From sequence record NZ_CP106961.1: a stretch of 64,000 bases of DNA. One strand, given 5' to 3'. Positions within the stretch are counted from its first letter, which is position 1. Each line of letters starts with the position of its first letter. Of the stretch, positions 2,460 to 32,709 are shown in pieces. The notes under the pieces were generated by a model. It made no database searches, was not told where the DNA came from, and saw only the letters and a program-made list of their open reading frames with translations. Made by a program: the position numbers and the translations under genes. The DNA comes from a plasmid.

Positions 2460-2514
2460 GGTAATGCTGCCAACTTACTGATTTAGTGTATGATGGTGAT
2501 TTTAAGGTGCTTGC

Positions 2515-9554: not shown

Positions 9555-9569
9555 GTTGGAGTCATTACC

Positions 9570-10030: not shown

Positions 10031-10039
10031 TACGACATT
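10031..10039. repeat. target-site duplication TACGACATT (right copy)
   Basis: pairs with 2451..2459. Confidence 0.65.
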
Positions 10040-10052
10040 CGGTAGAATACAT
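10040..10052 (-). other. pcoG: displaced pcoG start codon plus first codons (MYST) and upstream promoter region, separated from gene body by the composite transposon
   Basis: minus-strand TAA ATG TAT TCT ACC continues in frame into GAT GTC GTA at 2459. Confidence 0.55.
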
Positions 10053-10340
10053 TTACTGGAATTCGCCGTTAGCATGAACACTGCGGCGTATGCTAGGGGT
10101 TTTCAGGAGGCGTGTCATCTGTCAGTTAATCGGGAGCACCGTTGATGGTCGTCATTTTTGTAACATATCTTGTTTCCCGTTTGCTCCTGAAGCTCTGGGA
10201 ACTGTATGACCAGCCCGACGGTGATGATTAACGGGACTGAAACAGGGTACGGCAGAGCAATATGGGGCTCATGTCCTGCTACGTAACCCGTCAGTAAAGC
10301 CCTGCTGCGCACCTGACGCTAAGCACTAACCCGCCTGCAG

Positions 10341-10790
10341 TTACCTGGTCGAATACAGCCCGCGAAGCTTTCTTGCCTGCGTCTGATGTGCTTCCGCACC
10401 GGCATTATTGACCTGCTCATGCACGAGAGCGGCTTTTTCTCCGGCATTCAGTTCGTTAAAAGAAGAAGACGAGGTCTTTGAATTTGCATCACTGCCGGAC
10501 AGCATTTTTTTATGTTCCTCAATCATTTTCTGATGCGCATAGGACGCGCTGTTGTTCATAAATGAATGAGCAACAATGGCCCTTTCATGTTCATTCATTT
10601 CAGAGAATGAGGGCGTGTTGTTTTTATTAACCCTGTCCGGTAAGTTTTCATGCGTCGAGGAGTTCACATGACTGACGGCTGAGGCATTATTAACAAATCG
10701 ATGTGCTTCATGGGCAATATCACTGGACTGAGCAAAAGCTGCCCCACAAAATAAAGCTGTAAACGCAGTGGTCGTGATTAATATATTCAT
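10341..10790 (-). CDS. pcoE: periplasmic His/Met-rich copper/silver-binding protein, PcoE/SilE family (pcoE1)
   Basis: signal peptide, MNEHER and AHQKM-type repeats as in SilE/PcoE. Confidence 0.7.
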   Translation of the reverse strand: MNILITTTAFTALFCGAAFAQSSDIAHEAHRFVNNASAVSHVNSSTHENLPDRVNKNNTPSFSEMNEHERAIVAHSFMNNSASYAHQKMIEEHKKMLSGSDANSKTSSSSFNELNAGEKAALVHEQVNNAGAEAHQTQARKLRGLYSTR

Positions 10791-11024
10791 GTGTAATTAC
10801 CTTCTGAGGTACATAAAAGATGTCCTTATGATCATATATAAAAATAATCAACCTGTGGGGAAGATGACGTAAATGTAATACAGCTATGTACATTACACGA
10901 TTGTAATGAATTTGTTTCTTAAGGTGTGCTAGATTCATTTCATTGTAAGTGGATGAACCAGTAATTTAATTTAAATCGGTTCTCGAATTCTGTCAGTAAC
11001 CATACTTTAAATAAGGGAATGCGC

Positions 11025-12842: not shown

Positions 12843-13738
12843 TGCGAATGAAGAGAAATTTGAAGGCCATACCTGTTCTGGTCGCCGGTTTGTTTACCTC
12901 ACAGCTTTCTATTGCGGCGGGCTCCGTCTCTGCAGATCCCCACGCCGGGCACGACATGTCTGCCATGCAGATGCCAGCAGATGAGAATTTCACTGAGATG
13001 ACGTCAATGGAGCCCATTGTAACTGAGAGCAGAACGCCAATTCCGCCTGTTACCGATGCCGACCGGAAGGCTGCATTCGGCAATTTACAGGGGCATGCGA
13101 TTCACGACAGTGCGATTAATTATCTGGTTCTGCTGGATCAACTGGAATGGCAACGGTCGGATAACACCAACAATTTCAGCTGGAGTGTTAACAGCTGGAT
13201 TGGAGGCGACACAGATCGGATTTGGCTAAAGAGTGAAGGTGAACGAAGCAATGGGGAAACGGAGGCGGCTGAAGCGCAGTTACTCTGGGGACATGCGGTT
13301 GGCCCATGGTGGGATTTGGTTGCGGGTGTCAGGCAGGATTTCAGACCTGCTTCTGCCCGGACCTGGGCTGCTGTCGGTTTTCAGGGGCTGGCACTCTATA
13401 ATTTTGAGTCTGAAATTACGGGTTTTGTCAGTAATGGCGGAAAAGCAGCCCTTCGTCTGGGAGGAGAATACGACGTTTTACTGACTAACCGGCTCATACT
13501 CCAGCCATCCTATGAGGTGAATTTCTACAGTCAGGATGATGAATCGCGGGGTCGCGGCAGGGGACTGACTGACACAGAGCTGGGGCTCCGGCTGCGCTAT
13601 GAAATACGCCGTGAGTTTGCACCCTATATAGGCGTTTCCTGGAATCAACTTTACGGGAAAACATCCGATATGGCGAAAAGAGAAGGTGAGAAAGACCATC
13701 AGGTAGTATTCCTGGCGGGAGCCAGAATCTGGTTTTAA
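12839..13738 (+). CDS. pcoB: copper resistance outer-membrane protein PcoB
   Basis: 299 aa, Met-rich N-terminal region then beta-barrel; overlaps pcoA stop (ATGA). Confidence 0.9.
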
Positions 13739-13777
13739 CGCACTGATATAAAACACTCAACTAAACAGGTAAATAAA

Positions 13778-14158
13778 ATGTCGATTTTAAATAAAGCCAT
13801 TCTTACAGGTGGCCTCGTTATGGGCGTTGCTTTCTCTGCTATGGCCCATCCGGAATTAAAAAGCTCTGTGCCACAGGCTGATTCAGCCGTAGCGGCCCCG
13901 GAAAAGATTCAGCTTAATTTCTCGGAAAATCTGACCGTGAAATTCTCAGGTGCAAAATTAACGATGACGGGTATGAAAGGCATGTCATCACATTCTCCGA
14001 TGCCGGTCGCGGCAAAAGTGGCGCCAGGCGCTGACCCTAAATCGATGGTCATTATTCCGCGAGAGCCTTTACCCGCTGGCACTTATCGTGTTGACTGGCG
14101 CGCGGTTTCTTCAGATACGCACCCTATTACCGGTAATTACACCTTTACAGTGAAGTAA
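13778..14158 (+). CDS. pcoC: periplasmic copper chaperone PcoC (CopC)
   Basis: 126 aa, signal peptide, Met-rich loop [13 protein letters not shown]. Confidence 0.9.
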
Positions 14159-14162
14159 TATT

Positions 14163-15092
14163 ATGAACGACCTGATTATGATTGTTATTCGTTTTCTTCT
14201 TTATCTGGATTTGATGGTAATATTTGGATTGCCATTTTTTCAGATATATGGAATAAGCGGTGTCAGACATGAAACCTATAACCTGACTAATTTCAGGTCG
14301 TTTATAACCTTTGCTGTTGTTACAGGCATCATTCTTACTGGCATTAATATGCTCCTGGTATCTAATGCCATGAGTGGAGTAACTGACCTCAGAGAATTAT
14401 CCATCCATGTTATCGAGATGGTGATAGAAGAAACTGATGTGGGTATTAGCTGGATTGTCAGGCTCTGTGCCCTGTTTACCACACTCGGTGCTTTGTTCCT
14501 TTACACTAATAAGAGAGTATTGTCCTGCCTGCTGATGACGATGAGTGGGGGCGTGGCGCTGGCTACACTTGCCTGGGGAGGACACGCCGTTATGCATGAC
14601 GGTCTGCATTACTATCTCCATTTACTGAGCGATCTGACCCATCTCGGCGCTGCAGGTGCCTGGACAGGTGCTCTGGTTGCATTTGCTATCCTGCTGATGC
14701 GCAGAAACGAGCATAATGCACAGAGCGTCATTGTGATATCTGACTCCCTGGCAAAATTTGCCACGGCAGGAACGGTGATTGTTGTAGCCCTGATCCTGAG
14801 TGCGCTGGTCAACTATCTGTATATTGCTGAGGGTAACTTAACTCCCTTATTCAACAGTTCCTGGGGGAGGATATTGCTTGCCAAGACGGCTCTGTTTGTT
14901 CTGATGCTTCTTCTGGCTGCAGCAAACCGGTTTCACCTGGGTCCCCGGCTTGAAGTTATGGTCAGGGAAGGGAATTATGATCGCAGCGTTGCCCTGATGC
15001 GAAACAGCATCCTGACAGAATTCGTTGTTGCGATTATCATTCTGGGCGCCGTAGCGTGGCTCGGAATGCTTGCTCCGTCTCAGGTCAGCTAG
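14163..15092 (+). CDS. pcoD: inner-membrane copper transport protein PcoD (CopD)
   Basis: 309 aa, 8 TM. Confidence 0.9.
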
Positions 15093-15146
15093 GGGACAGC
15101 CAAAGCTCATGCGTGAGATTTTTACTTTCATATCAGCGAGTTGACC

Positions 15147-15827
15147 ATGCAGCGTATTTTAATCGTTGAAGACGAACAAAAAACAGGTCGTTACCTGCAG
15201 CAGGGACTGGTTGAGGAAGGCTATCAGGCCGATCTCTTTAATAATGGCCGCGATGGTCTCGGGGCCGCGTCGAAGGGACAGTATGATTTGATAATACTGG
15301 ACGTGATGCTGCCTTTCCTCGACGGGTGGCAAATCATCAGCGCACTGAGGGAGTCCGGGCACGAAGAACCGGTCCTGTTTTTAACCGCAAAGGACAACGT
15401 GCGGGACAAAGTGAAAGGACTGGAGCTTGGCGCAGATGACTACCTGATTAAGCCCTTTGATTTTACGGAGCTGGTTGCACGTGTAAGAACCCTGCTGCGC
15501 CGGGCACGCTCGCAGGCCGCAACAGTCTGCACCATCGCCGATATGACCGTTGATATGGTGCGCCGGACCGTGATCCGTTCGGGGAAGAAGATCCATCTCA
15601 CCGGTAAAGAATACGTTCTGCTTGAGTTGCTGCTGCAACGCACCGGAGAAGTGTTACCCAGGAGTCTTATCTCGTCCCTGGTCTGGAACATGAATTTTGA
15701 CAGTGATACGAATGTGATTGATGTCGCCGTGAGACGTCTGAGAAGTAAAATTGATGATGACTTTGAGCCAAAACTGATCCATACCGTTCGCGGTGCCGGA
15801 TATGTCCTGGAGATCAGAGAAGAGTGA
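15147..15827 (+). CDS. pcoR: OmpR-family response regulator PcoR
   Basis: [10 protein letters not shown] receiver domain plus winged-helix. Confidence 0.9.
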
Positions 15828-17224
15828 GGTTCAAAATTTCCCTGACCACACGCCTGAGCCTGATTTTTTCTGCGGTGATGCTTACGGTATGGTGGTTATC
15901 AAGTTTTATCCTGATTAGCACCCTTAATGGCTATTTCGATAATCAGGACCGCGATTTTCTGACAGGTAAACTTCAGCTCACCGAAGAGTTTCTTAAAACA
16001 GAGACGTTCCGGAACAAAACGGATATTAAGTCATTATCAGAAAAAATAAACGATGCGATGGTAGGGCACAATGGTTTATTCATTTCTATAAAAAACATGG
16101 AAAATGAAAAAATTGTTGAACTCTATGCCAAAAATTCTGTTGTTCCAGCGGTCCTGCTTAATAAGTCGGGTGATATTCTCGACTATATGATCCAGACGGA
16201 AGAAAATAACACCGTGTACCGCAGTATCTCGCGGCGGGTTGCCATGACGCCGGAACAGGGTAAAAGCAAACATGTCATCATTACGGTTGCCACGGATACT
16301 GGGTATCACACCCTGTTTATGGACAAACTCAGTACCTGGCTGTTCTGGTTCAATATCGGTCTGGTCTTTATTTCTGTTTTTCTGGGCTGGCTGACCACAC
16401 GTATTGGTCTGAAACCGTTACGGGAAATGACCAGTCTGGCTTCCTCCATGACTGTACACAGCCTGGATCAGCGTCTAAATCCCGATCTGGCTCCGCCGGA
16501 AATCTCTGAGACCATGCAGGAGTTCAATAATATGTTTGATCGCCTGGAGGGGGCATTCCGGAAACTGTCAGATTTCTCGTCTGACATCGCGCATGAGCTG
16601 CGCACACCAGTCAGTAATCTGATGATGCAGACGCAGTTTGCACTGGCTAAGGAAAGGGATGTTTCGCAATACCGCGAAATTTTATTCGCTAACCTGGAAG
16701 AACTGAAAAGGTTGTCACGAATGACCAGTGACATGCTTTTTCTGGCACGTTCAGAGCATGGTCTGCTGCGGCTGGATAAACATGATGTGGATCTGGCAGC
16801 CGAACTGAATGAATTACGTGAGTTGTTCGAGCCCCTGGCAGACGAAACAGGAAAGACAATCACGGTTGAAGGAGAGGGCGTTGTTGCCGGAGACAGCGAT
16901 ATGCTCCGACGTGCTTTCAGTAACCTGCTTTCCAATGCAATCAAGTATTCTCCCGATAACACCTGTACAGCGATACACCTTGAGCGTGACAGTGACTGTG
17001 TGAACGTGATGATTACGAATACGATGTCCGGCCAGGTTCCCGCTAATCTGGAACGTTTGTTTGACCGGTTCTATCGCGCAGACTCATCAAGGTTCTACAA
17101 CACGGAAGGCGCGGGGCTGGGATTATCAATTACAAGGTCGATCATTCATGCTCACGGCGGCGAGCTGTCAGCAGAACAGCAGGGGCGGGAAATTGTGTTC
17201 AGTGTGCGTCTGTTAATGGATTAA
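15824..17224 (+). CDS. pcoS: sensor histidine kinase PcoS
   Basis: 2 TM, HAMP, H-box [11 protein letters not shown], ATPase domain; start overlaps pcoR stop. Confidence 0.9.
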
Positions 17225-17440
17225 TACCGTTATTCAGGAGAAACCCGGAAGGTGACAAAAATGTCATCGTTCAGTCACGCGATAAACAGAGGCGGTTTTT
17301 TATAATCAGCCATAAATCAGGACAGCGTGATAATTCAATCGCCCGGTTCCTGGCGTGATGATCAACCAGCCCTGAGATCAAATGCTTTCTCTGTTATAAG
17401 CATTGATTGTTCGGGTATGAAAACACCGGAGACCCAACCA

Positions 17441-17874
17441 TGAAAAAGATCCTTGTATCCTTTATTGCCATGATGGCTGTCGCTTCATCTGCCTGGGCTG
17501 CAGAGACAATGAACATGCATGACCAGGTAAATAATGCCCAGGCGCCTGCCCATCAGATGCAATCATCCGCTGAAAAAAGTGCAGTTCAGGGGGAGAGCAT
17601 GAAAATGATGGATATGAGCGGTCACGATCAGGCCGCAATGTCCCATGAAATGATGCAAAACGGCAATTCTGCTGCCCATCAGGACATGGCTGAAATGCAT
17701 AAAAAAATGATGAAATCCAAGCCAGCAGCTTCTAACGAAACAGCAAAATCATTTTCCGAAATGAACGAGCATGAGAAAGCCGCTGTTGTGCATGAGAAGG
17801 CGAATAATGGTCAATCTTCCGTTATTCATCAGCAGCAGGCGGAAAAGCATCGCAGCCAGATCACCCAGAATTAA
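17441..17874 (+). CDS. pcoE: periplasmic copper-binding protein PcoE (pcoE2)
   Basis: MKKILVSFIAMMAVASSAWA signal peptide; His/Met repeats; ORF-track start 17407 is an upstream extension. Confidence 0.85.
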
Positions 17875-17927
17875 CCCGCAGCTCCACTTGTCAGACCCTC
17901 ATTTGACGCCGAAGTCACTGGCTTACG

Positions 17928-17953
17928 CTCCCGTCCGGGAGCGTTTTTTTCCC
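17928..17953 (+). terminator. rho-independent terminator downstream of pcoE
   Basis: GCTCCCG-TCC-GGGAGC followed by GTTTTTTT. Confidence 0.6.
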
Positions 17954-18375
17954 ATATATCAAACTTTAACTCTGAAGAGGTGGAAGTATCTGACCAACAC
18001 TGTCACGTAACGCCAGATAACTACAAAAACACCTTTTTCCTCCTGTAAATTGCAGTTCCTGCCCGCCAGGATAATTATCCCGAACTCTGTCAATGAACAA
18101 TCAAGGGCAATACAAGGGGGATGCAATACACCCCTGTTTTTCGGGAAATAAGCGAGGATTGACCATTTCTTGTTAATCCCTGAAATGTTCCTTGTTCTTT
18201 ATGCGGTTAGATGCGGATATTGAATTTACTGAGATCCCGCGTAATGGCATACCCAAAGCACTCCTCAAAACGAAACGCAGCCTGCCACGACGAATGTTGA
18301 CGCAAAACATCATCACAGTGAGTAGGTATAGTTCGTGTTCGATATTGGCTTTAGTGAACTGCTATTGATATTCAT

Positions 18376-18413
18376 GGGGTCCGCTTGGAAAACGGAAAAT
18401 ATCCTACGTTAAG
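18376..18413 (+). repeat. 38-bp terminal inverted repeat (IR-L) of Tn3-family transposon
   Basis: GGGGTCCGCTTGGAAAACGGAAAATATCCTACGTTAAG; 37/38 identical to reverse complement of 30305..30342; Tn3-like GGGG...TAAG ends. Confidence 0.8.
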
Positions 18414-18504
18414 CCTGTTTCTTTAGCTGGCATTACAAAAAGCGAGCGTCTGCATGGTACAGACAGACACCCGAATACGATAAAAATGAGACGAAAAAAA
18501 CAGG

Positions 18505-18930
18505 TTACTTAACCCGCTTCCCCGTTTCGTCAATGACCTTTTCGCCGTCCTCTTTGGTAAACGCTCCTTTCTGACCTTCAGGTAGAATATCCAGCACTAT
18601 TTCTGAAGGGCGGCAAAGACGAGTGCCAAGCGGCGTAACGACTACCGGCCGATTAATCAGGATCGGATGTTGAAGCATAAAATCAATCAACTGCTCATCA
18701 CTGAATTTCTCTTCATCAAGGCCCAGGTGTTCATAAGGCTCAACATTCTTACGCAGCAATGCACGCACCGTAATTCCCATATCTGAAATAAGTTTAATCA
18801 GATCATCACGGGTCGGTGGCGTATCGAGATAATAAATAATGGTCGGTTCGTTACCGCTGTTACGGATCATCTCCAGCGTGTTGCGTGAAGTGCCGCAGGC
18901 CGGGTTGTGATAGATGGTAATGTTGCTCAT
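18505..18930 (-). CDS. arsC: arsenate reductase (glutaredoxin-coupled) ArsC
   Basis: 141 aa, MSNITIYHNPACGTSRNTLEMIR with catalytic Cys12. Confidence 0.9.
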   Translation of the reverse strand: MSNITIYHNPACGTSRNTLEMIRNSGNEPTIIYYLDTPPTRDDLIKLISDMGITVRALLRKNVEPYEHLGLDEEKFSDEQLIDFMLQHPILINRPVVVTPLGTRLCRPSEIVLDILPEGQKGAFTKEDGEKVIDETGKRVK

Positions 18931-18942
18931 ATCTTTATCTCA

Positions 18943-20232
18943 TTACAAAGTGATGGAAAGCCGCAACGCCAGCGCGGCCAGAGTGACAAACAGCACGGGC
19001 AGAGTCATGATAATGCCGGTGCGGAAGTAATAACCCCAGGTGATCGTTATATTTTTCCGGGCAAGCACATGCAGCCAAAGCAGGGTTGCCAGACTGCCAA
19101 TCGGGGTGATTTTCGGGCCTAAATCGCAGCCAATCACGTTGGCATAAATCATTGCCTCTTTGACGACGCCAGTCGCCGTACTCCCGTCAATCGACAGCGC
19201 GCCAATCAGCACCGTCGGCATATTGTTCATCACCGACGACAGGAACGCGGTCAGGAAGCCGGTGCCGAACGTTGCTGCCCATAACCCCTTTTCTGCCAGC
19301 AGGTTCAGTACACCAGACAGATACTCCGTGAGCCCGGCATTGCGCAGGCCATAGACCACCAGGTACATGCCCAGCGAAAAAATCACGATCTGCCATGGCG
19401 CACTGCGCAGGACTTTCCCTGTGTTGATGCCATGACCTCTTTTCGCCACGATAAACAGTACTGCTGCGCCAGCAGCTGCTATCGCGCTGACAGGGATCCC
19501 CAGCGGCTCCAGAACGAAGAAACCGACAAGCAGCAATAACAGGACAATCCAGCCCGCCCTGAACGTTGCCGCATCCTTTATCACACTGGCAGGCGTCTTC
19601 AGCAGCGAAACGTCATACGTTGCCGGAATATCCCTGCGGAAGAAGAGATGCAGCATGATCAGCGTGGCCGCAATCGCTGCCGCATCCACGGGGATCATAA
19701 CGGAGGCGTACTGCGTAAAGCCCAGATCGAAGAAGTCCGCCGAGACGATATTCACCAGGTTAGAAACAATGAGTGGCAGGCTGGCCGTATCTGCAATAAA
19801 TCCTGCAGCCATGACAAAGGCCAGTGTCGTGCCCTGGCTGAACCCCAGTGCGAGCAGCATCGCAATCACAATCGGCGTCAGGATCAGCGCGGCGCCATCA
19901 TTGGCGAACAAAGCAGCAACAGCGGCACCGAGCAAGACTATCCAGGTGAACAGCAGGCGGCCACGTCCGTTACCCCAGCGGGAGACGTGCAGTGCGGCCC
20001 ACTCAAAGAAGCCGGACTCATCGAGCAGCAGGCTGATGATGATGACCGCAATAAATGCCGCTGTCGCGTTCCAGACGATATTCCAGACAACGGGAATATC
20101 AGCGATATGGATGACACCGGTTCCCAGCGCCAGCACAGCCCCGATACTCGCGCTCCAGCCAATACTCAGGCCTCTGGGTTGCCAGATCACCAGTACCAGC
20201 GTCAGTAAAAATATACTCCCTGCCAAAAGCAT
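18943..20232 (-). CDS. arsB: arsenite efflux pump ArsB
   Basis: 429 aa from [11 protein letters not shown]; ORF-track start 20310 is a spurious 26-codon extension. Confidence 0.9.
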
Positions 20233-20276
20233 CTCAGACCCCATCATATATGATTTTGTAAATATGTTTTCCTGCC

Positions 20277-20597
20277 TCAGCAGGAGGTGCAGGCTGATTT
20301 GTCCAGCCATTCACGTACATCCTCGCGCAGACACTGCCAGGTCGTCGTGATTGTCTCTGCTGCCCACGCCGGAATATGGGGTGACAGACGATAGTGGATC
20401 CATTTGCCTTCCCGACGGTCAAGAACCAGATCAGCCTCGCGAAGGATAGCCATATGTCGCGAAATTTTGGGCTGCGATTCGGAGGTGGCAACGCAGATAT
20501 CGCAGACGCACAATTCTCCGGACTCCCGGAGAAGCATGACGATGGCTAGCCGTGTTTCATCCGACAGGATTTTGAAAAGCTGAACAGGTTGTAGCAT
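20277..20597 (-). CDS. arsR: ArsR/SmtB-family arsenite-responsive repressor
   Basis: ELCVCDIC metal site and HTH; 106 aa. Confidence 0.9.
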
Positions 20598-20682
20598 TTT
20601 TCACTCCGTTCCCTTTAGAATACACATATGTTAGATCATATATATTAACTTTAAAATCACCTGTTCTCTCCGGAGGAGAAAA

Positions 20683-21381
20683 ATGGAACAATTTCCAGCC
20701 CTGAATACTGACTGTTTTGATCAACATATTGCCGAACGTCTGCACCTGCAGGAGCCCCCACGGATTCTGATCCTGTATGGCTCAGTAAGGGAGCGCTCCT
20801 ACAGTCGCTTTGCCGCGGAGGAAGCAGGTCGCCTGCTGACGGCGATGGGCGCGGAGGTGAAATTCTTTAACCCCTCCGGTTTACCCCTGCCGGATGATGC
20901 CCCGGATACGCACCCTAAAGTCTCCGAGCTACGCGGGCTGGTCAGATGGTGTGACGGGATGGTGTGGAGCTCGCCGGAACGGCACGGGGCTATGAGCGCG
21001 GTGATGAAGGCGCAGATCGACTGGATACCGTTGAGTGAAGGCGCGGTTCGTCCTTCGCAGGGCAAGACACTTGCAGTGATGCAGGTTTGCGGCGGTTCGC
21101 AGTCCTTCAATGCCGTGAACCAGATGCGCATTCTGGGCCGCTGGATGCGGATGTTCACAATTCCCAACCAGTCCTCGGTGGCGAAAGCCTGGCAGGAATT
21201 TGATGAGAACGGAAGGATGAAGCCGTCCTCATGGTACGACCGTATCGTAGATGTCGCAGAGGAGTTGTTTAAAATTACGTTGCTGCTCAGGGGACAAACC
21301 AGCTACCTTGCAGATCGCTACAGCGAACGAAAAGAGAGTCATCAGGAACTTTCGTACCGCGTCAATCAGGAAAAAATATAA
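20683..21381 (+). CDS. arsH: NADPH-dependent FMN reductase ArsH, divergent from arsR
   Basis: 232 aa, [15 protein letters not shown] flavodoxin-like motif. Confidence 0.85.
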
Positions 21382-21509
21382 CGCCTTCTGATCGTATAAA
21401 TACACACCATGAGCGTTTTCACAAAGTCTCCTTCTGCCAGGCAGCGGATAATCTTACATGTGTCTGTCGTTTTCAGAAGACGGCAGACCGGACTAAAACC
21501 ATAGGCATA

Positions 21510-21815
21510 TCATTTGCCTTCAACAAGTTCACCGAACAGCTCTTTCACCCTGTTTCTGGCGTCCGTTAGCGCTATGTGCCCTTGTCCGGTGATTTCATAT
21601 ACTCGCCGGATTCGTCGACCGGCCTGAACATGTCGTGAAGTGAGATACCCCTTCTTTTCCATACCGTGCAGCATCGGATACAGGGTACCCGGGCTGAGTT
21701 GATAACCGTGGTGTCGCAATTCCTCAATGATGCCCAGACCAAAGACGGGTTCTTTGGCTGCATGATGCAGGATGTGCAAACGGATCATCCCGCCGTAAAG
21801 ATCTTTGTCGGTCAC
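21510..21815 (-). CDS. PadR-family transcriptional regulator downstream of chrA
   Basis: 101 aa winged HTH, typical chrA-padR module. Confidence 0.7.
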   Translation of the reverse strand: MTDKDLYGGMIRLHILHHAAKEPVFGLGIIEELRHHGYQLSPGTLYPMLHGMEKKGYLTSRHVQAGRRIRRVYEITGQGHIALTDARNRVKELFGELVEGK

Positions 21816-21825
21816 GCCCGGAACC

Positions 21826-23031
21826 TCACAGTGCTAAACTCAACAACCAACCCGCAACACCGCAACTCACTACGACCAGCCACGGCGGCAGTTTCCAGAA
21901 CATCAGAGCGACCAGTGCCACAAGGGCAAGGCCGAAATCTTGCGGAGCGAGAACTGCGCTCGTCCATACTGGTTGATAGAGAGCTGCCAGCAGAAGGCCA
22001 ACTACGGCTGCATTAATACCCTGCAACGCTGCTTGTGTACGGATATTGCGGCGCAGACTTTCCCAGAACGGCAATGCTCCCACAATCAGAAGGAAGGACG
22101 GTGCGAAAATTGCCAGCAGACAAACCAGACCACCCAGCCAGCCAGAAGGCACCTGGTTCATCGAAGCCCCGAGAAAGGCTGCAAAAGTGAACAACGGTCC
22201 AGGAACGGCCTGGGCAGCGCCGTAGCCAGCCAGGAATGTATCAGTGCTGACCCAGCCAGAAGGAACGACTTCAGTCTGCAGTAATGGCAGCACGACATGC
22301 CCGCCACCAAAAACCAGTGATCCGGTCCGGTAGAAAGTTTCTACCATTAACAGCGTCGGATTTGGGAATATCGCCGTCAGCAATGGTAACCCTGTCAGTA
22401 GCACAAAGAACAGCGTGAGCCAGAACAATCCGACGCGACGCCGTATTGAAACGGGCAGCGGATCATGTACCGTCGTCTGCTGAGGTTTGAACAGTAACAT
22501 GCCAGTGACAGCCGCAGTGACGATTACTCCCACCTGTCCCCAGGCCGATGGCACAAGAAGCACAAAGCAGGTTGCCACTGCCATGACAGTAATACGCGGT
22601 ATATCCGGGCAAAGATTTCGGGCCATGCCCCATACAGCTTGCGCGACCACCGCAACGGCTACCACTTTCAGCCCATGCAATACACCAGAGGGCATCACAT
22701 CCCCGTAACTGGTCATCCCCAGCGCAAACAGGATCAGTGCAACTGCTGACGGTAGCGTGAAGCCGGCCCATGCTGCCAGCGCCCCGGTATAACCGGCCCG
22801 GGACAGCCCGAGCGCTATACCAACCTGACTGCTTGCTGGTCCCGGAAGGAACTGGCACAGAGCGACCAAATCTGCATAGCTGCGCTCGGTCAACCACTGC
22901 CGTCGCGTCACAAACTCATCGCGGAAGTAACCCAGATGGGCAATTGGGCCGCCGAAGGATGTCAGGCCAAGTCGGAAGAAAATCAGAAAGACAGCCCAGG
23001 GGCTGTGATCATTCCTGGCAGTATCGTTCAT
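21826..23031 (-). CDS. chrA: chromate efflux transporter ChrA
   Basis: 401 aa, duplicated CHR domains, FRLGLTSFGGPIAHLGYFR motif. Confidence 0.85.
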   Translation of the reverse strand: MNDTARNDHSPWAVFLIFFRLGLTSFGGPIAHLGYFRDEFVTRRQWLTERSYADLVALCQFLPGPASSQVGIALGLSRAGYTGALAAWAGFTLPSAVALILFALGMTSYGDVMPSGVLHGLKVVAVAVVAQAVWGMARNLCPDIPRITVMAVATCFVLLVPSAWGQVGVIVTAAVTGMLLFKPQQTTVHDPLPVSIRRRVGLFWLTLFFVLLTGLPLLTAIFPNPTLLMVETFYRTGSLVFGGGHVVLPLLQTEVVPSGWVSTDTFLAGYGAAQAVPGPLFTFAAFLGASMNQVPSGWLGGLVCLLAIFAPSFLLIVGALPFWESLRRNIRTQAALQGINAAVVGLLLAALYQPVWTSAVLAPQDFGLALVALVALMFWKLPPWLVVVSCGVAGWLLSLAL

Positions 23032-23206
23032 GGTCAGATCCTGATTGCTGGTTTTATTGGCTATTATAATCGAATTTCGTTATCGAAATTCGATTATAAT
23101 AGCCACTGCTCCCTGTGGATAGAATGATGTTTCATGCTTTCCAGATGTTTACTTCAAGAACAGTTTCAACTGCCTGGCCAGTTATGGGCTTTATTCACAT
23201 TCAGTA

Positions 23207-23785
23207 TTATTGCTGTCCTGCTTTTACCCGGAGTATGGTTTGCCGGGTGGTATTAAATTCTCTGGCAACCGCACTGATACTGGCCCCGGAATTAAGGCGC
23301 TCTGACACTATTTTTTTTTGCTCCTCGCTCAAGATGGGCGGACGACCGAAGCGTTTCCCGGCTGATCTTGCCCGAGAAATCCCTGAATGTGTGCGTTCAA
23401 TCAGCAGATCCCTCTCAAACTCAGCCACAGCTGAAATCACCTGCATCGTCATTCTCCCGGCAGCGCTGGTCAAATCAACACCTCCGAGCGCCAGGCAGTG
23501 AACACGAATATCTGACGAAGCCAGTTGCTCAACAGTTTTTCTGATATCCATGGCATTACGCCCAAGACGATCCAGCTTGGTGACTATCAGCACATCACCA
23601 TTTTCCATGCGATCAAACAGCCGGATAAATCCGGGACGTTCGCTGGCAGCAACCGAACCACTTATATGTTCCTCAATCAGTCGCTGGGGTCTGATGGCAA
23701 AACCCGCCGCTTCAATTTCCCTTCGCTGATTCTCGGTGGTTTGCTCAAGAGTCGAAACCCGGCAGTAAGCAAAAACTCGTGACAT
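23207..23785 (-). CDS. tnpR: serine recombinase / resolvase TnpR
   Basis: [15 protein letters not shown] catalytic Ser region, C-terminal HTH; ORF-track start 23860 is an extension. Confidence 0.8.
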
Positions 23786-23944
23786 AGGAAACTTTCCGTA
23801 CGAAATGGATGTCCGAATTATAACGTATGTACGAAACAAATTTCGCTGACTTTCGGACATATTGTTTGCGAGGCGTACGAAACCGACCGGTTTCGGTCAG
23901 TGTAAAGCGATAACCAAAACGAACTATATGCAGAGGAAGCATTT
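23786..23944. promoter_or_regulatory. putative res site / divergent tnpR-tnpA promoter region
   Basis: 159-bp intergenic region between divergent tnpR and tnpA (position only). Confidence 0.35.
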
Positions 23945-24400
23945 ATGCCACGGAGACAAATACTCAGCAGTGAAGAAAAAGAGCGCTTGCTGGTTGTGCC
24001 GGATGATGACGTTCTTCTGGCGCGCATGTGTTTTTTGAGTGAACATGACCTCGCTCTTATTAATAAACGCCGCAGACCTGCAAATCGCCTGGGCTTTGCT
24101 GTTTTACTCTGTTATTTGCGAGGGTCGGGGTTTCCTCCCGACAAAAATATTTCCCCTCACGACGGGGTTGTTTCCCGGCTTGCGGCTCATTTGAAACTTC
24201 AGCCTGATTTGTGGGCCGAGTATGCATCAAGAGAGGTCACCCGCTGGGAGCATCTGGCTGAACTATACCGCTATCTGGAATTATCCCCTTTCAACCGGGC
24301 GCTGCAAAAAACCTGCATTCGCCACCTTTATCCCCACGCTATGCGGACAGACAAAGGTTTTTTGCTTGCGGAAGAAATGCTCTCCTGGCTTCACAATAAG
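23945..24400 (+). pseudogene. tnpA: Tn3-family transposase tnpA, N-terminal 152 codons (DUF4158-like region), interrupted by ISL3 element
   Basis: MPRRQILSSEEKERLLVVPDDD start typical of Tn3 TnpA; frame WLHNK continues as NVIFPSVDV at 27781 when the insertion is removed. Confidence 0.85.
24392..24400. repeat. direct repeat CACAATAAG flanking ISL3 element (left)
   Basis: identical 9-mer at 27772..27780. Confidence 0.75.
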
Positions 24401-24487
24401 GGGTAAGCGGATTAAATGGTTGATCTTACCTTTGCATGAGAGTGAGACAGACCGGCATCTCATCGGATTATCTGGTTGATGCTTCAC

Positions 24488-24895
24488 CTACTGCTGGTGC
24501 ATGTTTCCTTCGCTAATTCCAGCAAGAACCCCACACGCCTCAACTTCCCGGTCATCGTTGCAACTCGCTCTCAGTGAAACGAGTTGTTTCTCAAGCGCTT
24601 GCAGAGCGGTTATCTGCGACCGCACATGAGAGATGTGATCATCGAGCAAGGCGTTGACGGCGGTACAAGGCTGATGAGGGTCGTCCTGATAGCTCTGTAG
24701 TTCGTGAATCTCAGCCAGTGACAGGCCCAGGATTCTGCAGCGACGGATGAAGGCCAGCCCCTCACCATGCTTCTCGGTATAGACACGGTAACCGTTGTCC
24801 TGCCGATCAGGCGGCGGCAACAAGCCCTGCTGTTCATAGAAGCGGATCGTCTGTGTTTCGACCCCTACCAACTGCGCCAACTGACCAATGCGCAT
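24488..24895 (-). CDS. MerR-family metal-responsive regulator (ZntR/CadR/PbrR-like)
   Basis: MRIGQLAQLVGVETQTIRFYEQQGLLPPP HTH and C-terminal Cys residues; divergent from CDF gene. Confidence 0.8.
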   Translation of the reverse strand: MRIGQLAQLVGVETQTIRFYEQQGLLPPPDRQDNGYRVYTEKHGEGLAFIRRCRILGLSLAEIHELQSYQDDPHQPCTAVNALLDDHISHVRSQITALQALEKQLVSLRASCNDDREVEACGVLAGISEGNMHQQ

Positions 24896-24969
24896 CAGCC
24901 TCCTCCCCAACGGATTCTTTACTCTATTGACCTTATAGTAGCTTTATAGTTTTAAATGGTACCACAACA

Positions 24970-25887
24970 TTGTTCAAGTGGAGTCGTATCATGAGCAAAT
25001 CCTGTGGTGGCGCCTGTGGCGGTGATGCAACGTCCGCAGCGGATACCGATATACAGGCCTCCTCCGAGGCGCCAGGGAGATGGGTCAGTGTTTATGCCGT
25101 GCCGAAGATGGACTGTCCATCAGAAGAACGAATGATTCGCCTAGCCCTGAACGGCTTTGAGGAGATTCGGGCGCTGTCCTTCGACTTGTCGAACCGCCGG
25201 CTGAAGGTCGTGCATGACGGCGAGGTCGAGCCCGTCACCTCGAAACTGAAGACCTTGGGGCTAGGCGCCTCGCTTCAGGAAACCGTCGCTGCAAATCCGG
25301 AGACCATCAAGGCCGCCGAGTTTTCGGCAGCTTCTGCTAAGCAAGAATCCGGGACCCTGCGCTGGTTGCTCGGCATCAATGCACTTCTGTTCGTGGTGGA
25401 AATGACTGCCGGTCTGATCGCCCAGTCCACCGGCCTGATTGGAGAATCCCTGGACAATTTTGCCGATGCGGCGGTGTACGGGCTTGCCCTTTATGCGGTT
25501 GGACATAGCGTGAAAATGCAGGTACGTGCCGCGCATCTTGCTGGTGTACTGCAACTGATCTTGGCTGTGGGCGTGCTCGTAGAGGTGGTGAGACGCTTTG
25601 TATTCGGTAGTGAGCCTGAATCGCTGGTGATGATGGCTATCGCATTCGTCGCATTGATTGCCAATACCAGTTGTCTGCTGCTCATATCCAAACATCGGGA
25701 AGGCGGGGCGCACATGAAGGCAAGCTGGATATTCTCGGCCAACGACGTGGTGATCAACCTGGGGGTCATCACCGCCGGCGCCCTGGTCGCGTGGACCGGT
25801 TCCAATTATCCGGATCTGATTATCGGCACCATCGCGGGGGGCATTGTACTTAACGGTGCCAGACGCATTTTGGCGTTGAAGGGTTAA
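24970..25887 (+). CDS. cation-diffusion-facilitator-like membrane transporter with Cys/Gly-rich N-terminal extension
   Basis: 6 predicted TM with CDF-like ESLDNFADA, N-terminal SCGGACGG and MDCPSEE metal-binding-like segment; no C-terminal cytoplasmic domain. Confidence 0.65.
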   Translation: MFKWSRIMSKSCGGACGGDATSAADTDIQASSEAPGRWVSVYAVPKMDCPSEERMIRLALNGFEEIRALSFDLSNRRLKVVHDGEVEPVTSKLKTLGLGASLQETVAANPETIKAAEFSAASAKQESGTLRWLLGINALLFVVEMTAGLIAQSTGLIGESLDNFADAAVYGLALYAVGHSVKMQVRAAHLAGVLQLILAVGVLVEVVRRFVFGSEPESLVMMAIAFVALIANTSCLLLISKHREGGAHMKASWIFSANDVVINLGVITAGALVAWTGSNYPDLIIGTIAGGIVLNGARRILALKG

Positions 25888-25890
25888 ATA

Positions 25891-26403
25891 ATGCTCATTA
25901 TTGGCAAAAAGCTCTCGCCGTATGCCCTATTGTCCATATCGGGCCTGCTGGCAGCGTCTGATCAGGCTGTAAAGTGGCTGGTGCAGCAATCAATGGCCTA
26001 TGGCGAGTATGTTTCGGTGACCCCGTTCTTTAACTGGGTGCACCTATGGAACACCGGTGCCGCATTCAGTCTTTTTGCGAATGGTGGAGGCTGGCAGCGC
26101 TACTTTTTTATCGGAATCGCGGTAGTGGTCTCGATTTTTCTGATCAAGCTGATCCTTGAAAATCGTCATAAAGGAGAAGCCATCGCTTACAGTCTTATCC
26201 TCGGTGGCGCCATGGGCAACCTGATTGACCGGGTCTTTCGCGGCTATGTTGTGGATTCCTTTGATTTCTATTGGCGAGACTGGCATTGGCCGGCCTTCAA
26301 CCTGGCTGATATTGCAATTGTCCTCGGTGCCTTACTTTTCGTTTCCAGCAGCTTGTTGGGTAAAAAAGCAAACACCAATGCCGAGCCGGATGGATCTGAC
26401 TGA
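25891..26403 (+). CDS. lspA: lipoprotein signal peptidase II
   Basis: 170 aa, conserved NxGAAFS and DxxDF(NLAD) motifs. Confidence 0.85.
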   Translation: MLIIGKKLSPYALLSISGLLAASDQAVKWLVQQSMAYGEYVSVTPFFNWVHLWNTGAAFSLFANGGGWQRYFFIGIAVVVSIFLIKLILENRHKGEAIAYSLILGGAMGNLIDRVFRGYVVDSFDFYWRDWHWPAFNLADIAIVLGALLFVSSSLLGKKANTNAEPDGSD

Positions 26404-26424
26404 CACCTACGCCTATACAACACC

Positions 26425-27714
26425 ATGACCGAACTTCCCGACAACATCCTTCACCTGCCGCAATACCAAGTACTGGGCTGCAAATCAACCGACGACGAAA
26501 TGCACTTCCAGGTGGACGTGCCCGATCCCATCGCCTGCGAGGAATGCGGCGTGCAGGGTGAGTTCGTACGGTTCGGCAAGCGTGACGTTCCCTATCGTGA
26601 TCTGCCCATCCACGGCAAGCGGGTCACTCTCTGGGTGGTCCGCCGCCGATACACCTGCCGGGCCTGCAAGACAACATTCAGGCCCCAGCTACCGGAGATG
26701 GTGGACGGATTCCGTATGACACTGCGGCTGCATGAGTACGTGGAGAAGGAATCCTTCAACCACCCCTACACCTTTGTGGCGGCACAGACCGGCCTGGACG
26801 AGAAGACGGTGCGCGACATCTTCAACGCCCGCGCCGAGTTCCTGGGGCGCTGGCACCGCTTCGAGACGCCCCGCATCCTGGGCATTGACGAGCTATACCT
26901 GAACAAGCGCTACCGCTGCATTCTGACCAACATTGAGGAGCGAACCCTGCTCGACCTGCTGGCCACCCGCCGCCAGGACGTGGTGACCAACTACCTGATG
27001 AAGCTGAAAGACCGGCAGAAGGTCGAGATCGTCAGCATGGACATGTGGAACCCCTACCGGGCAGCGGTCAAGGCTGTGCTGCCCCAGGCCCGTATCGTGG
27101 TCGATAAGTTCCATGTGGTGCGCATGGCCAACGATGCCCTAGAGAGAGTGCGCAAGGGCCTCAGAAAGGAGCTGAAACCGTCCCAGAGCCGGACTCTCAA
27201 GGGAGACCGGAAAATCCTGCTGAAACGCGCTCACGAAGTCTCAGACCGGGAGCGCCTCATCATGGAGACCTGGACAGGCGCGTTCCCGCAACTGCTGGCC
27301 GCCTACGAGCACAAGGAGCGCTTCTACGGCATCTGGGACGCCACCACACGGCTCCAGGCAGAAGCCGCCCTGGACGAGTGGATAGCCACCATCCCGAAGG
27401 GCCAAAAGGAAGTCTGGAGCGATCTGGTCAGGGCAGTGGGAAACTGGCGCGAAGAGACCATGACCTACTTCGAGACGGACATGCCCGTCACCAACGCTTA
27501 CACGGAGTCCATCAACCGACTGGCCAAGGACAAGAACCGTGAAGGGCGCGGTTACTCCTTCGAGGTGATGCGGGCACGAATGCTCTACACCACGAAGCAC
27601 AAGAAGAAGGCACCGACTGCGAAGGTCTCTCCTTTCTACAAGAAAACCATCGGTTACGGACTGCCGGACTTCGCAGAGGAACTCAACTACGGAGTCGATC
27701 TATCAACCATCTGA
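26425..27714 (+). CDS. tnpA: ISL3-family transposase
   Basis: 429 aa, N-terminal zinc ribbon CEECG..CRAC, DDE region. Confidence 0.85.
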   Translation: MTELPDNILHLPQYQVLGCKSTDDEMHFQVDVPDPIACEECGVQGEFVRFGKRDVPYRDLPIHGKRVTLWVVRRRYTCRACKTTFRPQLPEMVDGFRMTLRLHEYVEKESFNHPYTFVAAQTGLDEKTVRDIFNARAEFLGRWHRFETPRILGIDELYLNKRYRCILTNIEERTLLDLLATRRQDVVTNYLMKLKDRQKVEIVSMDMWNPYRAAVKAVLPQARIVVDKFHVVRMANDALERVRKGLRKELKPSQSRTLKGDRKILLKRAHEVSDRERLIMETWTGAFPQLLAAYEHKERFYGIWDATTRLQAEAALDEWIATIPKGQKEVWSDLVRAVGNWREETMTYFETDMPVTNAYTESINRLAKDKNREGRGYSFEVMRARMLYTTKHKKKAPTAKVSPFYKKTIGYGLPDFAEELNYGVDLSTI

Positions 27715-27771
27715 GGGTGGTATCAGATTGATGGGGTGAAGGTGCCCCATCAACCATTAAATCCGTATACC

Positions 27772-27780
27772 CACAATAAG
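27772..27780. repeat. direct repeat CACAATAAG flanking ISL3 element (right)
   Basis: pairs with 24392..24400. Confidence 0.75.
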
Positions 27781-30309
27781 AATGTCATTTTCCCCTCAGT
27801 TGATGTCATTGAGCGGACCCTGGCTGAAGCAGCAACGCTTGCAGACAGGGCGGTTTTTTCTGCGCTTACCGCGCAGCTTGAACCAGGGCACAAAGCGGCA
27901 CTGGACCGTCTGCTGAGATCTGAGGGTGAGCAACCCTCACGGCTGGCCTGGCTGCTCCAGCCTCCGGGAAAAATTAATGGCAAAAATGTCCTGCAACATA
28001 TCGACCGGTTAAATGCGATTGAGGCGCTGGCACTGCCTGACGGTATTGCGCTTTCCGTTCACCAGAACCGGCTCCTGAAACTGGCACGCGAAGGCAGGAA
28101 AATGAGTAGCCGGGACCTGGCAAAATTCACGGATGTTCGCCGTTATGCCTCGCTGGTTTGTGTTATATCGGAAGCCAGGGCCACCCTGACTGACGAAGTT
28201 ATTGATCTGCACGAGCGTATTCTGGGCAGTCTGTTCAGCAGGGCAAAACGCACGCAAGCCGAACGGCTTCAGCAAACGGGAAAGCTGATTCAGAGTAAGC
28301 TGAAGCAATACGTTACCATCGGGCAGGCATTGCTTAACGCCAGAGAGTCTGGTGAAGATCCCTGGGCCGCAATAGAAGACGTCCTTCCCTGGCAGGAATT
28401 TATCAACAGCGTGGAAGAGACGCGCTTCCTGTCACGTAAGGACAACTTTGACCCGTTGCATCTGATCACAGAAAAATACAGTACGCTGCGTAAATACGCC
28501 CCCCGGATGCTGTCTGCGTTGCAGTTCAGGGCTGCACCCGCCGCATTGCAGCTCAGTGACGCGCTGGACACCGTCAGAGAGATGTATCGAAAACAACTCC
28601 GAAAAGTACCGCCTTCCGCGCCAACCGGGTTCATCCCGCAAAGCTGGAGAAAGGCTGTGATCACTCCCACCGGCATTGATCGAAAATATTACGAATTTTG
28701 CGTGCTGAATGAGCTGAAGGGAGCCTTACGTTCTGGTGACATCTGGGTAAAGGGATCACGCCGCTACCGGAATTTCGATGATTATCTGATCCCGTCTGAC
28801 GATTTTGAAAAATCACTCCGTGATAATCAGCTATCCCTTGCCATTCCGACCGATTGCCATGAGTACATCAAGAACCGTATGACACTTCTGGCATCGCGCC
28901 TGGAGGAAGTGAATGCGATGGCGCTGGTCGGTGATTTACCTGATGTTGATATATCGGATAAAGGCGTGAAAATAACCCCGCTGGATAATAGTGTCCCTTC
29001 AGCAGCATCCCCTTTTGCCGATTTGGTTTATGGCATGCTGCCTCACCCTAAAATTACTGAAATTCTGGATGAAGTGGACGGCTGGACCGGTTTTACCCGC
29101 CATTTCACGCATCTTAAAAATAAACACGTCAGACCAAAAGACAGAAAGTTGTTACTGACCACCATCCTGGCCGATGGCATCAATCTGGGGCTGACGAAAA
29201 TGGCCGAATCCTGTCCGGGAGTGACAAAATCGTCACTGGAGGGCATTCAGGCCTGGTACATCAGGGATGAAACATATTCAGCCGCGCTGGCTGAGCTGGT
29301 TAATACTCAGAAACAGCGGCATCTGGCTGCATTTTGGGGCGATGGTACAACGTCTTCGTCTGACGGGCAGAACTTTCGGGTGGGGAGTCACGGGCGTTAT
29401 GCGGGTCAGGTCAATCTGAAATACGGGCAGGAACCAGGCGTGCAGATTTACACGCATATCTCGGATCAATACAGCCCATTTTACACCAAAGTGATCAGTC
29501 GCGTGCGCGACTCCACCCACGTACTTGACGGTCTGCTATACCACGAAAGTGATCTGGAAATTACAGAGCATTACACTGATACCGCTGGTTTTACGGAGCA
29601 TGTTTTCGCGCTGATGCATCTGCTCGGATTCGCTTTTGCCCCAAGGATCCGGGATCTTCACGACAAGCGGCTTTTTATTAAGGGAAAGGCTGAGCGTTAT
29701 CCGGGACTTCAATCTGTGATAGCCACAACACCACTGAATCTTAAAGACATTGAGACGCACTGGAATGAGGTACTTCGCCTCGCAAGCTCGATAAAACAGG
29801 GGACTGTTACCGCATCGCTCATGATGAAAAAACTGGCCAGTTATCCTAAACAAAATGGCCTTGCAAAGGCATTGAGGGAAATCGGACGCATCGAACGGGC
29901 ACTGTTTATGCTGGACTGGTTTCGCGATCCATCACTGCGCCGACGCGTACAGGCTGGGCTGAATAAAGGTGAGGCCCGCAATGCGCTTGCACGAGCGGTC
30001 TTTATGCACCGGTTGGGTGAGATCAGAGATCGGGGGCTGGAGAATCAGAGCTACCGGGCCAGTGGTCTGACATTGCTGACTGCGGCGATCTCCCTGTGGA
30101 ATACGGTATATATAGAAAGAGCCATAGATTCCCTGAGACGAAAAGGGATCCCAATTAATGAGCAACTGATTTCTCATTTGTCCCCTCTGGGATGGGAGCA
30201 CATCAATCTGAGTGGGGATTACGTCTGGCGGACAAACCTTAAGCTGGGGCAGGGTAAATACAGTTCATTACGCTCAGTGGATAGTGGTCTGTACAAAAAA
30301 CAGGCTTAG
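27781..30309 (+). pseudogene. tnpA: Tn3-family transposase tnpA, C-terminal ~842 codons
   Basis: long ORF homologous along its length to Tn3-family TnpA (DDE region); ORF-track start 27736 lies inside the ISL3 right end, creating a hybrid start. Confidence 0.85.
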
Positions 30310-30342
30310 CGTAGGATATTTTCCGTTTTCCAAGCGGACCCC
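30305..30342 (-). repeat. 38-bp terminal inverted repeat (IR-R) of Tn3-family transposon
   Basis: reverse complement GGGGTCCGCTTGGAAAACGGAAAATATCCTACGCTAAG; overlaps tnpA stop. Confidence 0.8.
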
Positions 30343-31032: not shown

Positions 31033-31532
31033 GGATTATGAGTTTAACTTGCAAGTTAGACGGACACTTTTCTTTTTGGTTAAAGCCATCCTCAGGGTGA
31101 GCAATGTCCTTTTAGTCCTAATGCATTGATATTTATTATTAATTTACCCTTACATCCAAGTCGGATAGACATATTTTTTGTCTGATCTGCAGGCATCTGT
31201 AAAAAAACTCTTAACTTGGACGGACAAATTACTTATAGAGCAATTCAAAACCGCCGCAGAAAGTGCCCCCTAGCATTTATTACGTAATTGATTCTAAATC
31301 TAAATGAGTCTGCGGGTTTATCACCAGAAGTTTGACCATTACAATAGAATAAATGTCAAACTGAGGTAACTTATGAACAAACATACCACAACAGAACTAG
31401 AGCTGAGCGCAAAAGTGACGCTGGCAGATTTTCAACTAAGTCTTCTGAAAAGGATTAATAACATCGCGGTCTCACTGAATCGCCACGGGTTTAACAGACA
31501 CCTCAGAGTCATTTAAGATGGCTTAAAGAGAG

Positions 31533-31817
31533 GTGCCCATGAGCGGTAAGCGTTATCCCGAAGAGTTTAAAACTGAAGCAGTCAAACAGGTTGTTGATCG
31601 CGGTTATTCTGTTTCCAGCGTTGCAACACGTCTCGATATCACCACCCACAGCCTTTATGCCTGGATAAAGAAGTACGGTCCGGATTCTTCCACTAATAAA
31701 GAACAGTCAGATGCTCAGGCCGAGATCCGCCGTCTCCAGAAAGAGCTGAAACGGGTTACCGACGAACGGGACATATTAAAAAAAGCCGCGGCGTACTTCG
31801 CAAAGCTGTCCGACTGA
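31533..31817 (+). CDS. IS3-family transposase OrfA (HTH)
   Basis: 94 aa with HTH and leucine zipper. Confidence 0.85.
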   Translation: MPMSGKRYPEEFKTEAVKQVVDRGYSVSSVATRLDITTHSLYAWIKKYGPDSSTNKEQSDAQAEIRRLQKELKRVTDERDILKKAAAYFAKLSD

Positions 31818-31873
31818 GGTACGTCTTTATCCGTGACAACTCCTGTTGCTGGCCTGTTCGCCTGCTCTGTCGG

Positions 31874-32686
31874 GTGCTGGATGTTCATCCCAGTGGTTTT
31901 TACGCCTGGCTTCAGCAGCCGCATTCACAACGCCATCAGGCAGACCTGAGACTGACAGGACAGATTAAACAGTTCTGGCTGGAATCGGGATGCGTCTATG
32001 GTTATCGCAAAATCCATCTGGATCTGCGTGACAGCGGGCAACAGTGCGGAGTAAACAGAGTCTGGAGACTGATGAAACGTGTCGGAATAAAGGCTCAGGT
32101 CGGATACCGAAGCCCGCGGGCACGTAAAGGCGAGGCCAGTATCGTGTCACCCAACAGGCTCCAGCGACAGTTCAATCCGGATGCTCCTGATGAGCGTTGG
32201 GTAACGGACATAACCTACATCAGGACCCACGAAGGCTGGCTGTATCTTGCCGTTGTTGTTGATCTGTTCTCACGCAAAATTATCGGCTGGTCCATGCAAT
32301 CCCGAATGACAAAGGACATTGTCCTGAACGCACTGCTGATGGCTGTATGGCGGCGTAATCCCGAAAAACAGGTGCTGGTTCATTCGGATCAGGGCAGTCA
32401 GTACACAAGCCATGAGTGGCAGTCGTTCCTGAAATCACACGGCCTGGAGGGTAGCATGAGCCGTCGCGGTAACTGCCATGATAATGCGGTTGCAGAAAGT
32501 TTTTTCCAGTTGTTGAAACGTGAACGGATAAAGAAAAAGATCTACGGAACGCGGGAAGAAGCCCGCAGTGATATTTTTGATTACATCGAAATGTTTTATA
32601 ACAGTAAGCGTCGGCATGGTTCTAGCGAACAGATGTCACCGACAGAATATGAAAACCAGTATTATCAACGGCTCGGAAGTGTCTAG
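31874..32686 (+). CDS. IS3-family transposase OrfB (DDE), expressed as OrfAB by -1 frameshift
   Basis: 270 aa with DDE motifs (WVTDITY, HSDQGSQYTS, E). Confidence 0.85.
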   Translation: MLDVHPSGFYAWLQQPHSQRHQADLRLTGQIKQFWLESGCVYGYRKIHLDLRDSGQQCGVNRVWRLMKRVGIKAQVGYRSPRARKGEASIVSPNRLQRQFNPDAPDERWVTDITYIRTHEGWLYLAVVVDLFSRKIIGWSMQSRMTKDIVLNALLMAVWRRNPEKQVLVHSDQGSQYTSHEWQSFLKSHGLEGSMSRRGNCHDNAVAESFFQLLKRERIKKKIYGTREEARSDIFDYIEMFYNSKRRHGSSEQMSPTEYENQYYQRLGSV

Positions 32687-32709
32687 ATTATCCGTGGCGA
32701 TTCACACTG

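Follow-up and report, generated by a model that had tools for sequence, protein, structure and literature searches.

An ISPpu12 insertion splits the transposase gene of an ars/chrA Tn3-family transposon on an enterobacterial plasmid

The stretch of plasmid DNA analysed here, 64,000 nucleotides of sequence record NZ_CP106961.1 (hereafter the window), carries a Tn3-family transposon. A single copy of ISPpu12, an insertion sequence (IS) of the ISL3 family, interrupts the transposase gene of this transposon, tnpA, behind codon 152. The anatomy of the locus can be read directly, with both tnpA fragments and the IS on the plus strand. The 5' fragment of tnpA (23945..24400, codons 1-152) is defined by its open reading frame (ORF) and by a tblastn match that is 100% identical over residues 1-152. 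ISPpu12 follows at 24401..27772 (3372 bp), as placed by a megablast search of plasmids and by comparison with the copy on pWW0. The 3' fragment of tnpA, codons 153-994 and the stop, occupies 27781..30309, the ORF called mechanically for it opening at a GTG at 27736, within the IS. The ends of ISPpu12 are a left inverted repeat (IR), GGGTAAGCGGATTAAATGGTTGAT (24401..24424, plus strand), and a right IR, GGGTATACGGATTTAATGGTTGAT (27749..27772, minus strand), both the same as in the pWW0 copy. The two are complementary at 21 of 24 positions, which agrees with the imperfect repeats of about 24 bp described in an earlier note on this DNA. On either side of the element stands a copy of an 8-bp target-site duplication, ACAATAAG, at 24393..24400 on the left and at 27773..27780 on the right (both on the plus strand).

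The boundaries just given differ by one base from those of the earlier note, which had seen the flanking repeat but had taken the element to be 3371 bp long (24401..27771). We place the right end at 27772 and the length of the duplication at 8 bp because the pWW0 copy likewise ends ...GTATACCC. The ninth base of the apparent repeat, a C, belongs on the left to the target and on the right to the IS, of which it is the terminus. Boundaries of 3371 bp with a 9-bp duplication were ruled out by the pWW0 end (...ACCC) and by the best alignment of the IRs, which is obtained at 27772.

As the reference for ISPpu12 we used the copy on Pseudomonas putida pWW0 (Williams et al. 2002, as cited in PMC3735179; NC_003350, 84397..87768, 3372 bp). 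The insert is identical to it at 3356 of 3372 nt (99.5%) and shares its length, its 24-bp imperfect IRs, its gene order (cadR/merR-like, CDF-like, lspA, tnpA) and its 8-bp target duplication; the transposases are identical over 429 of 429 amino acids. What separates the two copies, apart from the host, which for the window is an enterobacterial plasmid and not Pseudomonas, is 16 substitutions, of which 14 are grouped at 24694-24770 in the regulator gene. At the protein level these amount to five changes in the regulator, one in the CDF-like protein and one in LspA. The changes within the 77-bp cluster in cadR (24694..24770) are G44V, G46R, G57D, Q67K and S68R, with the window residue first. 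With 14 of the 16 differences inside 77 bp, the positions of the substitutions resemble a patch brought in by recombination more than drift spread over the element.

The window isoform is the one common in Enterobacteriaceae. In a megablast search of 72,556 plasmid records with a 3371-nt query, the element was matched in 474, and in 201 of these a single place covered at least 80% of it; the top-ranked matches are 100% identical over the full element length. NCBI labels the identical copies 'ISL3-like element ISPpu12 family transposase', accompanied by cadR, 'cation transporter' and lspA, and the transposase accession, WP_004574636.1, is common to the copies on the Leclercia plasmid pLEC-5e18 and on pWW0. 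In the summary of its published properties by Clark et al. (PMC3735179), ISPpu12 has imperfect IRs of 24 bp, duplicates 8 bp of its target, transposes independently and in multiple copies, and is at home in a broad range of hosts. Since the near-identity to the pWW0 copy and these published properties all fit, the insert is ISPpu12 itself, in its enterobacterial isoform. The label 'ISPpu12-like' given in the earlier note had thus named the right family and element but understated the relationship, the differences being only 16 in 3372 nt. The window holds one copy of the element. Intact ends, an intact transposase and the existence of filled and empty sister sites are indirect signs that this copy may be competent for transposition.

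The interrupted gene can be restored on paper with no irregularity. Joining 23945..24400 to 27781..30309 yields a 2985-nt ORF of 994 codons with 0 internal stops, which reads ...SWLHNK/NVIFPSVDVIERTL... across the join (slash at the junction); joins displaced by one base bring in about 60 stops. Left unjoined, the 5' ORF runs on to 24406 and ends after 153 amino acids as ...SWLHNKG and a stop, the GGG TAA being supplied by the IS end. In the reconstructed protein, residues 6-169 match the full Pfam model of DUF4158 and residues 579-966 form DDE_Tnp_Tn3, likewise complete. The junction, at residue 152, is crossed by the first of these matches, so the IS breakpoint falls within DUF4158. Against the intact 994-amino-acid TnpA of Enterobacter sp. 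638 pENTE01 (WP_011906500.1) it is identical at 970 of 994 positions (98%) with 0 gaps, and its alignment with the TnpA of Tn4430 covers residues 25-978 (E ~1e-220) and is ungapped at the junction. The 3' ORF taken by itself matches NCBIfam NF033527 (transpos_Tn3) from model position 131 to 954 only, and the hallmarks of a Tn3-family TnpA (about 1000 amino acids, an N-terminal DUF4158/DBD1 and DDE_Tnp_Tn3) are all present only after reconstruction. As the rejoined ORF is free of stops and aligns without gaps to WP_011906500.1, the gene was intact when it was hit and has acquired no later lesion. The statement in the earlier note that the two pieces join perfectly therefore holds. The N-terminal segment of 152 residues is, moreover, not naturally missing from relatives of this protein: the closest intact ones have it, as does Tn4430 TnpA.

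The pENTE01 module is the closest tnpR-tnpA pair found, with divergent genes and a TnpA that is uninterrupted; other passenger genes lie beside its tnpR. Tn4430 is a separate transposon from a Gram-positive host, and its TnpA (PDB 7QD4-7QD8), for which the aligned stretch takes in DBD1 and the DDE/RNase H domain, served solely as the reference for assigning the missing N-terminus to DBD1.

The same site is also found empty. On pLEC-000f of Leclercia sp. LSNIH1 (NZ_CP026170.1), a 400-nt reconstructed junction with a single copy of the duplication is present at 100% identity; the tnpA of that copy (locus ~5600) carries an independent 577-bp internal deletion of its own. The left IS/tnpA junction was found in 3 of the 72,556 plasmid records, all from Leclercia (NZ_CP026390.1, NZ_CP042495.1 and NZ_CP042507.1), and had 0 exact matches in the collection of species-representative genomes. 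A perfectly matching empty site in a sister plasmid, occurrence in three Leclercia records and complete identity of the IS with other ISPpu12 copies together indicate a recent insertion, confined to one lineage.

The transposon that received ISPpu12 spans 11,967 bp as found (18376..30342), or 8,587 bp once the IS is taken out together with its duplication. Its boundaries are 38-bp IRs that begin with GGGG, the left one, GGGGTCCGCTTGGAAAACGGAAAATATCCTACGTTAAG, at 18376..18413 on the plus strand and the right one at 30305..30342 on the minus strand, overlapping the tnpA stop (30307-30309); the two match at 37 of 38 positions. These ends are independently supported, since in many other plasmids the similarity to the window starts at 18374-18376 and stops at 30342-30345. 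The gene names come from pLEC-5e18, which is 99.99% identical and whose annotation was transferred by adding 15499 to its locus coordinates; for the arsenic genes we relied on the ORF list as well. From the left end the passengers are arsC (18505-18930, minus strand), an arsenic transporter gene (18943-20232, minus), the regulator gene of the ars module (20277-20597, minus), arsH (20683-21381, plus), a padR-family regulator (21510-21815, minus) and the chromate efflux transporter gene chrA (21826-23031, minus; Pfam Chromate_transp, E=3e-82). They are followed by tnpR (23207..23785, minus), which is divergent from tnpA and encodes an intact serine resolvase of 192 amino acids (Pfam Resolvase and HTH_7; annotated as a recombinase family protein). 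By position, the tnpR-tnpA intergenic region (23786..23944) is the presumed place of the res site and of divergent promoters. The gap between chrA and tnpR contains an inverted repeat with two perfectly matching arms of 22 nt set 4 nt apart (23058..23105, TGGCTATTATAATCGAATTTCG / CGAAATTCGATTATAATAGCCA), a possible operator or terminator.

Similar ars/padR/chrA-tnpR-tnpA blocks, at 88-94% identity and ending at the same IR positions, are present in many plasmids of Klebsiella, Enterobacter, Citrobacter and Leclercia. In many of the Klebsiella plasmids with the ars/chrA block, no tnpA coding sequence is listed under the match, and decay of tnpA may be frequent in this transposon. A literature search for the name of the transposon found no published Tn number. 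Judged by its organisation, the host element is a typical Tn3-family unit transposon save for the 5-bp target duplication, which was not found, the flanks being TTCAT (18371-18375) and TATCT (30343-30347). This bears on the history of the present copy and not on its assignment to the Tn3 family; the unlike flanks point to further rearrangement at the site, for example by later recombination. Beyond the right IR the window and pLEC-000f diverge from about 30345, and the divergence and the unlike flanks together suggest a rearrangement at the transposon end.

We consider it very probable that ISPpu12 transposed into the Tn3-family tnpA, and that this was a plain insertional inactivation which left the transposon non-autonomous. 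As the anatomy shows, the DDE transposase of ISPpu12 inserted the element at tnpA codons 150-152 through an 8-bp staggered cut of the target, on a Leclercia plasmid resembling pLEC-5e18, and left a duplication of the length usual in its family. The native tnpA promoter would now yield just the 153-amino-acid N-terminal stub, while the remaining 842 codons are severed from their start and from most of DBD1, the domain that recognises the IRs. From this structure we infer that TnpA function and the self-mobility of the transposon have been lost. As both 38-bp IRs and tnpR are retained and tnpA is broken, the element would be non-autonomous and mobile only with a cognate TnpA supplied in trans. 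No second Tn3-family tnpA that might provide such trans-complementation is present in the window. A second ISPpu12 copy, and with it a composite transposon, was ruled out within the same 64 kb, where the element is single. While nothing contradicts the insertion itself, several points limit its presumed consequences. The loss of mobility is deduced from gene structure, a cognate TnpA could be encoded elsewhere in the cell, beyond the window, and 857 codons can still be read without a stop, beginning with a GTG in the end of the IS. The history of the transposon at this site would also include the further rearrangement noted above.

The genes carried by ISPpu12 are those that the earlier note had listed, namely an ISL3 transposase, a MerR-like regulator, a CDF-like transporter and signal peptidase II, and all of them are borne out by Pfam and NCBIfam. 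The regulator (24488..24895, minus strand, 135 amino acids) is of the cadR/pbrR type of the MerR family, scoring 206.4 bits against TIGR02047 (CadR-PbrR; cut-off 151.45) and containing MerR Pfam domains. The cation transporter (24991..25887, plus, 298 amino acids) reaches 52.1 bits with Pfam Cation_efflux (cut-off 26.6). With NCBIfam TIGR01297 it has 58.8 bits, under the cut-off of 82.35, and a match limited to model positions 5-191 of 285 without the C-terminal part; with one model above its cut-off and the other below it and partial, 'CDF-like' is the proper wording. At its N-terminus this protein has a weak HMA-like region (Pfam HMA, under the cut-off). Next come lspA (25891..26403, plus), encoding a signal peptidase II of 170 amino acids (NF011358, full length, 378.7 bits against 285; TIGR00077, 138 against 74; Peptidase_A8), and the ISL3-family transposase gene (26425..27714, plus, 429 amino acids; DDE_Tnp_ISL3, E=6e-67; Zn_ribbon_ISL3; HTH_Tnp_ISL3; NF033550, 298.8 bits against 180), whose Pfam and NCBIfam matches also secure the family of the insert. 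The last three genes are co-oriented, with gaps of 3 nt (CDF-like to lspA) and 21 nt (lspA to transposase). They are faced by a putative promoter of the MerR type (24927..24957, plus; TTGACC-19 nt-TTAAAT), whose spacer contains a dyad. It was read by eye; the consensus promoter scan admits spacers of 16-18 nt only. Since the CDF-like gene, lspA and the transposase gene are nearly contiguous behind this candidate promoter, expression of the ISPpu12 transposase might respond to metals.

This arrangement gives some ground for a role of the severed 3' part of tnpA, in which transcription leaving the IS and an in-frame start in the right IR would produce an N-truncated TnpA of about 857 amino acids with a biological role, for instance as a trans-dominant regulator or as a partly active transposase. 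The earlier note had seen that the reading frame opens at 27736 into the tnpA 3' part, which is correct, but the codon there is GTG and not the ATG it had reported; a nearby ATG, at 27731, belongs to another frame. The ORF from GTG 27736 to 30309 does share its frame with the 3' part of tnpA, as does the stop of the ISL3 transposase (TGA, 27712-27714), the ORF opening 7 codons further on, although coincidence alone would give a shared frame in one case out of three. Transcription could be supplied by the putative promoter at 24927-24957, which faces the tnpA 3' part across three genes in the same orientation separated by 3 and 21 nt. A scan of the plus strand from 26403 to 27836 found no terminator-like site, and an ISPpu12 promoter may drive adjoining genes according to Clark et al. 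(PMC3735179). In the right end of the IS itself, however, the consensus scan found no sigma-70 promoter on the plus strand. Pairing with the anti-Shine-Dalgarno sequence upstream of GTG 27736 and GTG 27742 is modest (-6.2 and -6.0 kcal/mol), like that at genuine starts here, but both candidate GTGs lie within a GC-rich hairpin with a 9-bp stem (27729..27752, plus strand, UGAUGGGGU/GCCCCAUCA). The local stem is real, whereas the folding of the 86 nt taken together is unremarkable (z = -0.97); with this fold and no U-tract, the hairpin was rejected as an intrinsic terminator. A further objection is that the truncated protein would be without most of DBD1, which is the key domain for IR specificity (PMC9579193), and so could not restore transposition. 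The PLSDB gene table of pLEC-5e18, which omits pseudogenes, lists no protein-coding gene over the stretch. Some read-through RNA into the tnpA 3' part is plausible; a functional truncated TnpA is unlikely, and the proposal that it has a role is in our estimate improbable.

The other fragment might be thought to matter instead. The 153-residue stub (23945..24406) has its native start and upstream region and retains about 147 of the 165 DUF4158 (DBD1) positions, and in Tn4430 more than 20 polar contacts link this domain to box B2 of the IR (PMC9579193). Made from the native promoter as a free IR-binding domain, the stub could disturb related Tn3-family elements in their transposition or their target immunity. 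The stub is, however, truncated inside its Pfam domain and may neither fold nor be stable, and the split configuration is rare (three records, one genus), which is more in keeping with a recent neutral accident than with selection for a function; we regard this role as very unlikely. Equally speculative, and very improbable in our view, is a two-piece TnpA, in which the stub with DBD1 only, from the native promoter, and a DBD1-less TnpA, made by read-through from the CadR-regulated ISPpu12 operon, would both act in trans. If true, the read-through would possibly be metal-inducible, and the pieces could block IR binding, poison dimers or alter the target immunity of related Tn3-family transposons, so that metal stress would be tied to transposon control. 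Finally, assemblers can be misled by repeats, of which ISPpu12 is a widespread one, and a misjoin might have put a multicopy IS inside tnpA. But the element is present once in the window, a clean 8-bp target duplication surrounds its complete IRs, and the same left junction recurs in three independently assembled complete plasmids, which makes an assembly artefact extremely unlikely.

As to the plasmid around the transposon, the window and pLEC-5e18 of Leclercia sp. LSNIH3 (NZ_CP026390.1) are 99.9-100% identical, barring a few IS and intron differences. An IS3-family element of 1229 bp with a 3-bp duplication, CAC, lies in the window at 31476..32704 (orfA 31533-31817, orfB 31874-32686); pLEC-5e18 is uninterrupted at this site and has a 'DNA-binding protein' gene annotated there, and 99.9%-identical copies of the element occur in Enterobacter plasmids. 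In pLEC-5e18 a second IS3-family copy is interrupted by a group II intron (ltrA), of which the window copy is free (window ~53422..53426, compared with 10199..12466 of the pLEC-5e18 locus). By the annotation of pLEC-5e18, window positions 1..18375, to the left of the transposon, form a heavy-metal island with silP, pcoABCDRSE and a copy of IS1, and tellurium-resistance genes are found farther along the plasmid.

Insertion of an IS into the transposase gene of another transposon is commonplace. ISPpu12 is a described element, and this exact split configuration is already present in public annotated records. Apart from its use for correct annotation, the finding has little significance. For annotation, the pieces of tnpA are to be given as one pseudogene interrupted by ISPpu12, and the ars/chrA transposon is best regarded as non-autonomous. 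The insertion site, filled in pLEC-5e18 and empty in pLEC-000f, can serve as a fine-scale marker of the Leclercia plasmid lineage. More generally, ISPpu12 is seen here spreading its CadR, CDF-like and LspA passengers among the heavy-metal-resistance plasmids of enterobacteria.

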